Below, piece after piece: positions 57,074 through 59,567 of a stretch of 63,653 bases of DNA. The notes beneath the pieces were generated by a model. It did no database searches. It saw only the letters and a program-made list of their open reading frames with translations, and was not told the origin of the DNA. The first letter of the stretch is position 1. Each line of letters begins with the position of its first letter. The stretch comes from Nanobdellota archaeon (GTDB taxonomy: Archaea > Nanobdellota > Nanobdellia > Pacearchaeales > GW2011-AR1). The position numbers and the translations under genes are program-made. The DNA is taken from the NCBI GenBank assembly GCA_018817405.1, contig JAHITZ010000046.1, forward strand, positions 1 to 63,653. Direction: 5' to 3'.

Positions 57074-58078
57074 TTAGCTTGCCAGTAAAGCCTCAATTCT
57101 AGCTTCTCTTAAATTCCCTCTTGCCCTCTCTGGATAGTCCGTATGAAACATTTCAAGACAACCACTCACATAACCATCGTGGCTTATCCTTACAGCTCTT
57201 GAAAATGTCTCTGGAACAGGAATGTAATTAACAAAAACCTTAGAGCTACCTTCCTGCGTATATTCATTAAAGACAACCCCATACTCATCCATCCTAAGAT
57301 TTCTCACATCTATAACGCCCCTCTCAACTAACTTATCCATTAACCCCTTCTGAGCGTCATAATCCGATTTCAAAATAACTTCAGTCCTTCCCAACCGCGA
57401 GAAATCAATCCCTTCTCCACTAACAATCCCACTATAAAATTCAACCACTCCCTCCTCCGCCAATCCAAGCTCATCCCGAGACCCTGGCGTTGCAACATAG
57501 GGCGAAACAAGAAACTTGGAAAAACCTAAAGAACCCATCTCTTCAACCAGGTCCGCAAGCGCCCCTTGGTTATGTCTCATCAATGTAAAACTCACAAAAA
57601 CTCTTTCTACTAAACTTGAAGGCAACCCTCTAAGATTCTCTACAGTTCTCTCATAATTCCCCTCCCCCCTAATATAATCATGCTCTCTTTGAGTTCCATC
57701 TAAACTAACATCCAAATAACCAGGATCTATCGCAGCAATCTCTTCCAAAACCCTTCCATGCAAAAGAGTTCCATTCGTCACTAACCCAAACCTTAATCTT
57801 GGATTTTCATCTCTCCTACTAGCTAAATGTCTCAAAAGAGCTACTGTCTTATCCGGAGAAAGCAATGGCTCCTTTCCAACATTCCCAAAAGTCAAAGCAC
57901 TCATCTCGATAAGCTTATCAAACGTTTCAGTCCATTCCCTAATAGGCAATCCCCCGTCAGTCTGCTCATACCCAACATAACAGTGCCTGCATGCCAAATT
58001 ACATACATTATTAATAAAATAAGAAACCTCTAATGGCCTATTAACTAAATCAACCTGTCCAGAAAGTCCTAACGCCAT
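57074..58078 (-). CDS. radical SAM enzyme (maturase-like core, no SPASM/twitch Cys cluster)
   Basis: CNLACRHCY (CxxxCxxC), GKEPLL, LVTNGTLL, DVSLDG, HDYIRGEGNYERTVENL. Only one further Cys in the C-terminal 300 aa. Begins MALGLSG like the two upstream peptides. Confidence 0.85.
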   Translation of the reverse strand: MALGLSGQVDLVNRPLEVSYFINNVCNLACRHCYVGYEQTDGGLPIREWTETFDKLIEMSALTFGNVGKEPLLSPDKTVALLRHLASRRDENPRLRFGLVTNGTLLHGRVLEEIAAIDPGYLDVSLDGTQREHDYIRGEGNYERTVENLRGLPSSLVERVFVSFTLMRHNQGALADLVEEMGSLGFSKFLVSPYVATPGSRDELGLAEEGVVEFYSGIVSGEGIDFSRLGRTEVILKSDYDAQKGLMDKLVERGVIDVRNLRMDEYGVVFNEYTQEGSSKVFVNYIPVPETFSRAVRISHDGYVSGCLEMFHTDYPERARGNLREARIEALLAS

Positions 58079-58079
58079 G

Positions 58080-58292
58080 CTAGTCGCCTCTTTGCTCAGA
58101 AACTATCTTTTCTCTCAAATCTCTCAGCCCGCTCAGTGCAGTTTCATAAAGCACTCTTGCAGTTTCCTGATCTCTTGGGATTCCATCCAATAAATGCTCA
58201 TATTTTCGAATACCTGCGTCTACATCTGCAACTACAACTCTCCTGTAAACCTCTCCAATTCCACCATTCGAACCAGAGACCCCAAGTGCCAT
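58080..58292 (-). CDS. 70-aa peptide B with N-terminal MALGVSGSNGGIGEVYR motif
   Basis: Paralog of peptide A. Its stop lies 1 nt before the rSAM ATG, and its ATG directly follows the peptide A stop. Confidence 0.6.
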   Translation of the reverse strand: MALGVSGSNGGIGEVYRRVVVADVDAGIRKYEHLLDGIPRDQETARVLYETALSGLRDLREKIVSEQRGD

Positions 58293-58493
58293 TTAATTAA
58301 CACCTCTACTCATTCTTTTCTGCAAATTCCTCAAAGAATCAATAACCCCTACATATCTCTCCTTAACCTTCACATCAGAACATTGACCCTGAAGTTCTTT
58401 ATATTCCCTAATTCTCTCTTCTACCTCCGTAATAGAGAATTCTCTATAAGCTTCTCCAATTCCACCATTCGATCCAAAAAATCCTAACGCCAT
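58293..58493 (-). CDS. 66-aa peptide A with N-terminal MALGFFGSNGGIGEAYR motif
   Basis: First gene of the cassette. A TATA-like box and a palindrome lie directly upstream. 14/17 N-terminal residues are identical to peptide B. Confidence 0.6.
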   Translation of the reverse strand: MALGFFGSNGGIGEAYREFSITEVEERIREYKELQGQCSDVKVKERYVGVIDSLRNLQKRMSRGVN

Positions 58494-58535: not shown

Positions 58536-58555
58536 TTTTACTAATAAAAGTAAAA
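58536..58555. promoter_or_regulatory. palindrome TTTTACT-N6-AGTAAAA in the divergent promoter region
   Basis: 7-bp arms in the 123-nt region between peptide A and the Lrp-type gene. Confidence 0.35.
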
Positions 58556-58616
58556 ATAAGCAACAATAAATACCTAAATTAGTAAGTTTTAAAAATATCA
58601 CTCCCCTTAAAAAAAT

Positions 58617-59567
58617 ATGGAAATCAAACTAGACAAGATAGACCAGAAACTATTAAGCTATCTCTTTCACAACTTCAGAGAACCAATAACAAAAATAGCC
58701 AAACAATGTCATATCTCAAGGGAGCAGGCAGAATACAGAATAAAAAAATATGAAAACTCTGGATTAATCAAGGGTTACTTTACACTTTTTAATTTACATT
58801 CCCTTGGTTACACTAAAAATTACATAATAAAATTAAGGGTGAAAAATCCCAACAGAGAAAAACTCTCACAAATCAATCCTCAAAAAAACGTGTTAACCCT
58901 AACAAGAGTTCAATGTTACGGCGAATGGGACTACGGTTTAACAGTCTTCACAAAAGAAAAAACAAACATTCTTGATTTTATCTCCCAACTTTACGATCTA
59001 TGAAAAAACGACCTCTTAGATTACGAAATCTTCGAGCCAATAGAATTACATTTCTTCCCGTTAAAAATCTTTGGAAGTAAAAAGGAAGATAAAACATTAA
59101 GCTTGGTTGAAACACCACAAGCCAGAATTGACAAACTAGACCAAAAGATACTAGAAGAACTCTCTAATAAAGCAAAAATGAAAATAGTAAAACTTGCAGA
59201 AAAAACCAAAGAAAAAGTAGAGACCGCAAACTATAGGCTAAAAAGATTAGAAAAAAACACTATCATAGGATACAGGATATTTCTCGATTTAGAAAAAATA
59301 GGATATCATCTTGCATTAGTCACCTTAAAGCTAAATAACCTTTCCCAACAAAACAAAAATAAGATCCTAGCGTATGGAAACCAAAAAGAAAGAATCCATG
59401 CTTGCGGCATTGGGATCGGAAAGTTCAACGTTCTTTTTCAAATAATCTACAAAACACCTTCAGAACTAAGTGAAGAAATAAACAAAATTAAAGAAAATTT
59501 CTCAGACAATCTTGTCGAGTATGAGTTAATACACATAGAAAACGAACTCGAACCTAAAACAATATAA
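58617..59567 (+). pseudogene. tandem Lrp/AsnC-type regulator interrupted by a single in-frame TGA
   Basis: Track ORFs 58617-59003 and 59103-59567 are in the same frame. The only stop between them is TGA at 59001-59003. Each half carries an HTH (KIDQKLLSYL..., RIDKLDQKILEELSNKAKMKIVKLAE...). Paralog of 30754-31797. Confidence 0.6.

Follow-up and report, generated by a model that had tools for sequence, protein, structure and literature searches.

A conserved N-terminal tail shared by a radical SAM enzyme family and small satellite proteins, possibly a peptide substrate or handle presented in cis or in trans

Why should an enzyme and two small proteins encoded next to it begin with nearly the same residues? 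This question is raised by three genes on the minus strand of a 63,653-nucleotide contig of a Nanobdellota archaeon (JAHITZ010000046.1, positions 1 to 63,653), the whole of which is referred to here as the window. The genes pepA (58293..58493, 66 residues), pepB (58080..58292, 70 residues) and one for a 334-residue radical S-adenosylmethionine (SAM) enzyme of an uncharacterised family (57074..58078) abut with spacers of 0 and 1 nucleotide. A reading made from the letters alone (the sequence-only reading) had presented them as an undescribed peptide-maturase cassette, and its gene order, coordinates, spacers and quoted sequences were all exact. We favour the view that the shared N-terminus is the enzyme's own peptide substrate or handle, which can be presented in cis or in trans, and put the probability of this reading at roughly 0.45. 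The window cassette is then best read as the split form of a two-part system that is mostly encoded as one protein.

With the window enzyme as query, 536 homologues were found in Nano-, Pace-, Woese- and Aenigmarchaeota, Deltaproteobacteria, Bacteroidales, Methyloglobulus and bacteria of the candidate phyla radiation (CPR). A scan of species-representative genomes gave 30 loci, including Brocadia, Scalindua, Sulfuritalea, Myxococcota, Rhodothermaceae, Phycisphaerales, Saccharibacteria and other Patescibacteria, all of them in uncultured or metagenome-derived assemblies and none in a cultured organism; the plasmid and phage collections held no enzyme homologue. The motif MAxGxSGSNGGI, or a form of it shifted by one residue, starts 104 of the 120 best homologues (about 87%), and most of the remaining 16 are single-substitution variants, fragments or proteins with mis-called starts. 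Two candidates for motif-less enzymes (P0093, whose true start is a GTG, and P0065) were rejected for the last of these reasons, the motif lying upstream of the called start, with a GTG start in L083; the contig of another (P0024, L082) ends 103 nucleotides upstream of the gene. In an alignment of 103 sequences Met1 and Gly7 are invariant and Ala2, Gly4, Ser6, Ser8, Asn9, Gly10 and Gly11 are at least 90% conserved, compared with a mean column identity of 50% for the enzyme. Over 32 distinct copies the motif codons vary synonymously, with Ser8 encoded by both AGY and TCN and all four glycine codons in use, and therefore the constraint acts on the peptide and not on the RNA; conservation of the common 5' end at the RNA level could be ruled out on these grounds.

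Compared with a 63%-identical homologue (P0004), the window enzyme has a clean 14-residue deletion that takes out SNGGIGEAQEDTDL (SNGGI and the linker) and leaves MALGLSG (58058..58078, minus strand) as the remnant of its own tail. Judged from these alignments, the motif is ancestral to the enzyme family and almost universal as its N-terminus, in bacteria as in archaea, and the window enzyme has lost it. It had been taken at first for a feature of the peptides that was copied onto the enzyme, a view that the large share of homologues carrying the motif themselves overturns. The first 21 nucleotides of the enzyme gene do match those of pepA at 19 positions, from which duplication or gene conversion had been suggested, but the match does not exceed what chance gives, as 19/21 or better is reached by about 10% of the pairs of motif starts taken from different genomes, and a codon bias common to one genome inflates it further. 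Gene conversion between the two 5' ends is thus not established; the shared N-terminal docking motif that had been offered beside it comes nearer to the data.

The motif is confined to this system. A degenerate DNA pattern run against metagenomes gave 47 loci, in which every occurrence is either the start of a family radical SAM gene or a small open reading frame (ORF), and the small ORFs adjoin a family radical SAM gene wherever the contig extends far enough (in L044 and L056 it ends before such a gene could appear, and L052 has the same small ORF as L048 and L076). The adjoining enzyme of one locus, L053, is a divergent one. Since the motif is exclusive to the radical SAM system, the partner that recognises it is most simply the enzyme itself.

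The distribution of the tail between enzyme and satellite proteins was scored in 58 non-redundant loci with sufficient upstream sequence; one of them (L032) was reassigned by hand, as the regular expression missed its variant peptides. A tail protein adjoins the radical SAM gene in 16 or 17 of these loci. The enzyme's own motif is lost outright in three (the window, L002 and L072), each of which has an adjacent tail protein, and in none of the 41 or 42 loci that have no such protein. It is degenerate or singly substituted in three loci with a tail protein (L028, L032 and L064) and in four without, the latter four being single substitutions and not losses, and it is canonical in 11 loci with and 37 without a tail protein. 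The three outright losses lie on separate branches and involve different mutations, and a Fisher test of lost against retained motifs, calculated by hand, gives p of about 0.02. Cis and trans copies of the tail complement each other. This also bears on the expectation that adjacent MALG peptides would recur at orthologous loci: one or two are present in DPANN loci and none in 42 of the 58, an absence that speaks against the cassette only formally, because the enzymes without a peptide carry the motif in cis.

In the window the enzyme lost its cis tail through the 14-residue deletion, so that pepB and pepA would supply it. The tail motif of pepB (58257..58292, minus strand) is the canonical MALGVSGSNGGI; that of pepA (58458..58493, minus strand) is the degenerate MALGFFGSNGGI, in which codon 6 (58478-58475) encodes Phe (GFFGS) at the position where Ser is at least 90% conserved. 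With Ser6 replaced in pepA and the enzyme tail deleted, pepB has the only fully canonical tail in the cassette. Two other arrangements were observed. The DPANN enzyme of L072 (1571-2657, minus strand) has no cis tail, starting with MRVDNKRPLEV, and its 36-residue tail peptide lies downstream, 1 nucleotide past the stop codon. A divergent radical SAM enzyme in L053 (424-1480, plus strand; CNLNCPYCYAK) likewise has no cis tail and is preceded by a basic 75-residue peptide with two tails (P0148), with a TrmB-like gene upstream; the tail system may extend to a sister radical SAM family.

Sequence comparison shows that the two small proteins, pepA and pepB, are paralogous: they agree at 14 of the first 17 residues, as had been counted before, a BLASTP alignment of residues 1-34 has E = 2e-12, and the identity over the full length is 40%. 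The sequence-only reading had them diverge after residue 17. On the contrary, the proteins are conserved throughout, since 14 small ORFs from orthologous loci align end to end and ten positions (Y16, R17, D23, G27, K30, Y31, L34, Y49, L56 and L59) are 90-100% conserved in 22 orthologues. Two subtypes recur and are frequently neighbours in one locus, IPxxQxExR..Y, to which pepB belongs, and APxEVKPLY, which pepA resembles. Estimates of the ratio of nonsynonymous to synonymous substitution (dN/dS) range from 0.16 to 0.58 and stay below 1 in every orthologue pair, with dS saturated; by this measure the small ORFs are under protein-level selection.

Neither pepA nor pepB has a Pfam or NCBIfam family, in agreement with the earlier failure to recognise them. 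A word-index protein search from the two alone gave 3 proteins, and a profile of 14 sequences was required for more; it found 28 small proteins of 60-111 residues, nameless or called 'hypothetical', without a Pfam domain or a named homologue, and the named sources are all DPANN archaea. HMMER against 1.84 billion representative proteins gave 27 matches at E <= 1e-3, nearly all of 31-106 residues, the two larger ones being a tandem-tail enzyme and a 2554-residue Ser/Thr kinase (P0163). The latter was discarded as a tail protein, as its match covers TPR-like repeats and not the tail. It has many such repeats and matches positions 10-41 of the small-protein profile with E = 1e-8, from which it follows that the tail proteins have a hairpin similar to one TPR-like repeat. 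Tail proteins that stand alone are uncommon and are found only beside a family radical SAM gene, in DPANN and some CPR lineages.

An AlphaFold2 (AF2) model of pepB leaves residues 1-9 disordered (pLDDT 46) and predicts two antiparallel helices at residues 10-37 and 43-68 (pLDDT about 97; 58089..58265, minus strand). In the model of a bacterial family member (103 homologues; pLDDT 92, pTM 0.90), residues 1-8 (MAIGFSGS) fall below 50, and the extension at residues 9-36 is at about 92. The tail is thus disordered in the enzyme and in pepB alike, an architecture that may be described as a tail on a handle. The two handles are related, as pepB residues 13-27 have their homologous counterpart in the N-terminal extension that bacterial family members carry: an hhalign comparison of the small-protein and enzyme-extension profiles aligns the first 27 residues of the small proteins (27 columns) with a probability of 97.6% and E = 3e-12, and the small proteins are therefore relatives of the enzyme extension to which a helical hairpin has been added. 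Another family of tail proteins, to all appearance unrelated (59-61 residues, MAVGFSGSNGGITTNVRKIDERTL...), was seen upstream of motif-bearing enzymes in the Patescibacteria-type loci L048, L076, L077 and L078. On this comparison of sequences, detachment of the tail seems to have occurred more than once.

Tails also occur in tandem, in at least five enzymes (P0025, P0072, P0117, P0165 and L046) and at least five small proteins (P0123-P0125, P0148 and L040). A further small protein, P0164, likewise has a tandem tail. The copies are spaced 14-27 residues apart, and the internal second copy keeps its Met-Ala. Either the Met is part of the motif that is recognised, or internal initiation gives two isoforms.

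The enzyme itself belongs to the radical SAM superfamily. It scores 58 bits against PF04055 (Radical_SAM; cutoff 29.5 bits), the cysteines of its cluster motif occupy positions that are invariant in the family alignment, and the 103 aligned homologues conserve FGNVGKEP, VTNGT and DxSxDG. The CX3CX2C ligands of the radical SAM [4Fe-4S] cluster are C26, C30 and C33 in CNLACRHC (57980..58003, minus strand). The only other cysteine of the window enzyme, which has four in all, is C307 (57158..57160, minus strand; C327 in P0040 numbering), the only further cysteine that is invariant over the 103 homologues, where it stands in RISHDGYVxxC. The C-terminal region (57080..57202, minus strand) is degenerate but SPASM/twitch-like in its fold alignment; residues 293-333 reach 15.2 bits with the Pfam SPASM model, below the cutoff of 21.5 bits, and the cysteine ligands of auxiliary [4Fe-4S] clusters are absent from the window enzyme and from the alignment of 103 homologues. 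The earlier statement that there is one cysteine beyond the cluster motif and no auxiliary cluster was thus correct. Only the generic Radical_SAM model passes its cutoff in the Pfam and NCBIfam scans: among the best 25 of 61 weak NCBIfam matches no curated cutoff is approached, the top one, NirJ, reaching 66 bits where 515 are required, and the best similarities are to NirJ, ScmE/F, PapB, MftC and similar models. Neither the enzyme family nor the small proteins are covered by a curated model.

The nearest solved relatives by sequence are CteB (E = 2.5e-19) and SkfB (E = 1.2e-14). Foldseek places precursor-bound SuiB, CteB, SkfB, anSME and ChlB at the top (TM-scores 0.55-0.66 over about 346 columns), together with viperins, the structural matches overall having E-values of 1e-13 to 1e-10 and TM-scores of 0.48-0.66. 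These neighbours in sequence and fold bear out the resemblance to peptide- and protein-modifying maturases that the sequence-only reading had noted and assign the family to their SPASM/twitch lineage, and the enzyme is best read as a member of a maturase lineage that has lost its auxiliary clusters. The SPASM/twitch maturases (CteB for the SCIFF sactionine, SkfB, SuiB for streptide) and anSME all have a substrate, peptide or protein, that threads into the barrel. The present family differs from them in having one conserved cysteine instead of 3-8 and in meeting no curated cutoff, and its putative substrate is not the core of a leader-bearing precursor but the very N-terminal end of the enzyme or of small helical proteins. 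It also has no recognition element of the kind known from peptides that ribosomes make and that are modified after translation (RiPPs), a winged helix of about 90 residues: typical homologues with a single tail have the beginning of the cluster motif at residues 34-48, the window enzyme has it at residue 26, and the bacterial AF2 model has just a short strand and one helix ahead of beta-1.

Several features point to the tail as something on which the enzyme acts. It is family-specific, more conserved than the enzyme, disordered and interchangeable between cis and trans, and the simplest explanation is that the enzyme itself binds it; its presence on two small helper proteins, and not on the enzyme, in the window suggests that the enzyme also acts on it. 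A role as substrate is favoured because the nearest relatives act on peptides, the tail is duplicated in tandem, and two different proteins carry it. Tandem copies, as far as the alignments tell, would agree more readily with a substrate or epitope than with a structural element that is unique. Several points weigh on the other side. AF2 leaves residues 1-8 unplaced, and internal copies keep their 'MA' though they are not N-terminal. With a substrate in cis each enzyme molecule would turn over once, an unusual situation. The tail is near-invariant across domains, unlike typical RiPP cores, and would fit a cofactor-binding or lid element as well. In archaea alone the cis/trans contingency is only suggestive (p of about 0.1 by hand count). 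Finally, the linkage of the enzyme to an ABC importer and a SIR2-like protein in bacteria other than CPR could point to a nucleotide or an imported small molecule as the true substrate.

If the tail is the substrate or handle, a course of events may be envisaged as follows. The segment behind the tail (in the small proteins about residues 13-27, in fused enzymes the matching part of the extension) would dock on the enzyme, and the tail, rich in small residues, would thread into the barrel over the [4Fe-4S]/SAM site; this placement, and with it the chemistry and the biological role, we infer. The 5'-deoxyadenosyl radical might then take a hydrogen atom from a tail residue, for which the invariant Gly7 or a neighbouring Ser or Asn would be reasonable candidates. 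The radical would be resolved without an auxiliary cluster, and C307 could conceivably be the hydrogen-atom donor, as in radical SAM epimerases, or become involved in a cross-link. Such a reaction would leave the protein with an altered N-terminus, bearing a D-residue, a cross-link or a stable radical or cofactor, and would not yield a secreted antibiotic. Expression would be conditional, under a dedicated divergent regulator of Lrp type in DPANN and of TrmB type in CPR. The proteusin epimerases PoyD and OspD are radical SAM peptide enzymes without a twitch auxiliary cluster, and in EpeE a single cysteine (Cys223) donates a hydrogen atom to the C-alpha radical (PMC13012085). The present family, too, lacks auxiliary ligands, and it has one invariant cysteine in its C-terminal region. 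A specific sequence relationship to the epimerases was not detected, EpeE/YydG (8AI2) giving no match at E <= 1e-3, and most residues of the tail are achiral Gly.

A bolder version of the substrate reading, which we consider possible but rather unlikely, would make the family a previously unrecognised class of self-modifying radical SAM enzymes that convert their invariant N-terminal dodecapeptide into a protein-derived cofactor, stable radical or cross-link, in cis or on satellite 'spare-part' proteins, with the module of bacteria other than CPR as the core of a new six-gene SIR2-linked signalling or defence system. The split forms of DPANN and CPR would then amount to experiments of nature in which enzyme and substrate are kept apart. 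By analogy only, a parallel may be drawn with pyruvate formate-lyase (PFL), its activase and YfiD (GrcA), where a radical SAM enzyme acts on a glycine-containing protein loop and a small stand-alone protein can carry the loop of a large one. The tail differs from glycyl-radical systems in having no RVxG[FWY] fingerprint and in being a loop on the radical SAM protein itself, and no activase is among the best NCBIfam matches.

The explanation that competes most seriously with a substrate or handle, although we hold it to be distinctly less probable, sees in the tail a working part of the enzyme, such as a Gly-rich lid, a loop that binds phosphate or a cofactor, or an autoinhibitory pseudo-substrate gating the active site. 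The enzyme would then have another substrate, be it a small molecule, a nucleotide or an imported peptide, and the small proteins would be regulators or detached subunits, providing the element or competing for it. The conservation of the tail is indeed of the degree usual for catalytic or cofactor-binding motifs, the tail stands in cis in nearly all members, and the complementarity of cis and trans copies fits a split enzyme equally well. Moreover, the genomic context of bacteria other than CPR suggests an imported or NAD-derived substrate. There the radical SAM gene stands at the end of a six-gene block that comprises an ABC ATPase (ABC_tran and oligo_HPY), an SBP_bac_5 protein, two BPD_transp_1 permeases and a SIR2_2 protein, that is, an Opp-like importer linked to SIR2_2 (seen upstream of the radical SAM match in L005, L007, L009, L011, L013, L017, L019-L021 and L023-L025). 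There is also a weak similarity to viperins, which act on nucleotides: viperin_w_prok of NCBIfam gives 35.7 bits, short of its cutoff of 180 bits, and the pVip model of PADLOC 40.5 bits over residues 18-142 only. This explanation is hard to square with tandem tails in at least ten proteins and with two different tail-protein paralogues kept per locus in several lineages. It is further weakened by the disorder of residues 1-8 even in a high-confidence enzyme model, and by closest relatives, in sequence and in fold, that modify peptides.

The SIR2_2 protein just upstream of the bacterial enzyme matches the SIR2 models of ThsA with 77 bits in PADLOC, by which no known defence system matches either the six-gene block or the enzyme. 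The likeness to the ThsA-type NADases of Thoeris is confined to this neighbour gene; unlike Thoeris, the block has no ThsB/TIR partner and is linked to an ABC importer and a radical SAM gene, and the SIR2_2 gene is absent from the DPANN form seen in the window. ORFs around the bacterial loci are often PIN-, restriction-modification-, FRG- or transposase-like, as judged by eye from their translations.

We consider it doubtful that the cassette encodes a classical RiPP, in which pepA and pepB would consist of an N-terminal core and a follower, and the tailored core would be released as a bioactive or signalling peptide that the bacterial Opp-like importer might re-import. This was in essence the bottromycin-like layout proposed by the sequence-only reading. 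The general ingredients are there, namely short genes abutting a tailoring enzyme that resembles peptide maturases, several precursor paralogues, multi-copy 'cores', a conserved helical part that could serve as the recognition element of a follower, and an ABC importer with a family-5 solute-binding protein beside the bacterial orthologues. As in bottromycin-type precursors, the conserved segment lies at the extreme N-terminus and is followed by a longer, recognition-like one. What fails is the rest of the system. Neither in DPANN nor in CPR nor in other bacterial loci is there a conserved gene for a protease, an exporter, immunity or a second tailoring enzyme, and the window neighbourhood has none of the bottromycin hallmarks (YcaO, B12-dependent radical SAM methyltransferases or other pathway genes). 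The 'core' is not variable, nine of its 12 positions being at least 90% conserved, and is almost invariant from Proteobacteria to DPANN, that is, over two domains of life; in most organisms the 'precursor' is the enzyme itself.

A little less probable still is a short linear docking motif for an external partner, be it Fe-S or SAM supply, the SIR2-like protein, a membrane complex or a protease, with the small proteins as adaptors or competitors. Although a disordered yet conserved N-terminal peptide is typical of such motifs, and multivalent tandem copies are common among them, the tail is confined to the enzyme family and its adjacent satellites, and the DPANN, CPR and other bacterial loci have no candidate partner gene in common. 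That the small ORFs are non-functional duplicated 5' ends of the radical SAM gene, or leader ORFs that act through their translation alone, would agree with their abutting the enzyme gene, their sharing its first codons and the partly degraded look of the window cassette (the in-frame stop of its regulator and the deleted enzyme tail), but is very improbable given a full-length family kept in Nano-, Woese-, Pace- and Aenigmarchaeota with two stable subtypes, a dN/dS below 1 in every pair, a confident helical hairpin in AF2 and, in L072, a peptide downstream of the enzyme, which excludes the role of a leader there.

The earlier impression that the cassette is undescribed was borne out: it is real and conserved, and no paper in the searchable literature contains the strings SGSNGG, GSNGGI or GFSGSNGG. 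Searches for a combination of radical SAM, SIR2 and an ABC or oligopeptide context found nothing, and those on N-terminal cores, fused precursors and RiPPs of DPANN gave no match to the cassette and no published description of it. If the tail is the substrate, the family would be a rare natural fusion of an enzyme with its substrate, conserved over bacteria and archaea, and in the split versions, where the two are already separate genes (334 and 70 codons), the chemistry would be easily testable. With it, the cluster-less branch of the SPASM/twitch lineage would gain a new reaction or a new protein-derived modification. A role would also be found for a gene that DPANN and CPR organisms, with their reduced genomes, retain under a regulator of its own, and an explanation for the bacterial block of ABC importer, SIR2-like protein and radical SAM enzyme, which is absent from the defence and RiPP catalogues searched.

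The regulator in question is a double HTH_AsnC (Lrp-type) protein, encoded divergently and immediately upstream of the cassette in all DPANN loci examined (more than 10) and present as one protein of 313-323 residues in orthologous loci. Its window copy (58617..59567, plus strand) is split by a single in-frame TGA (59001-59003) at a codon that is Trp (TGG) in the L001 orthologue. Recoding of TGA was ruled out, since TGA ends 13 of the 57 long ORFs in the window; as an ordinary stop codon there, it must be a nonsense mutation, a read error or a site of readthrough. In CPR loci a divergent TrmB-type regulator takes the place of the double Lrp/AsnC protein.

Near the window cassette lie a GT2 gene, a CTP_transf_1-like gene, an LPG_synthase_TM gene and a class-II aminoacyl-tRNA synthetase gene, none of them a conserved neighbour. 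Between regulator and cassette, the inverted half-sites TTACTAAT and ATTAGTAA (58538..58585, with halves at 58538-58552 and 58571-58585) lie about 30 bp apart and recur in most DPANN loci (L001, L012, L031, L032 and L034); they are candidate operators. Apart from these, and not reported by the repeat finder, a palindrome that is perfect by eye, ATCTTAC-A-GTAAGAT, abuts the start codon of pepA.

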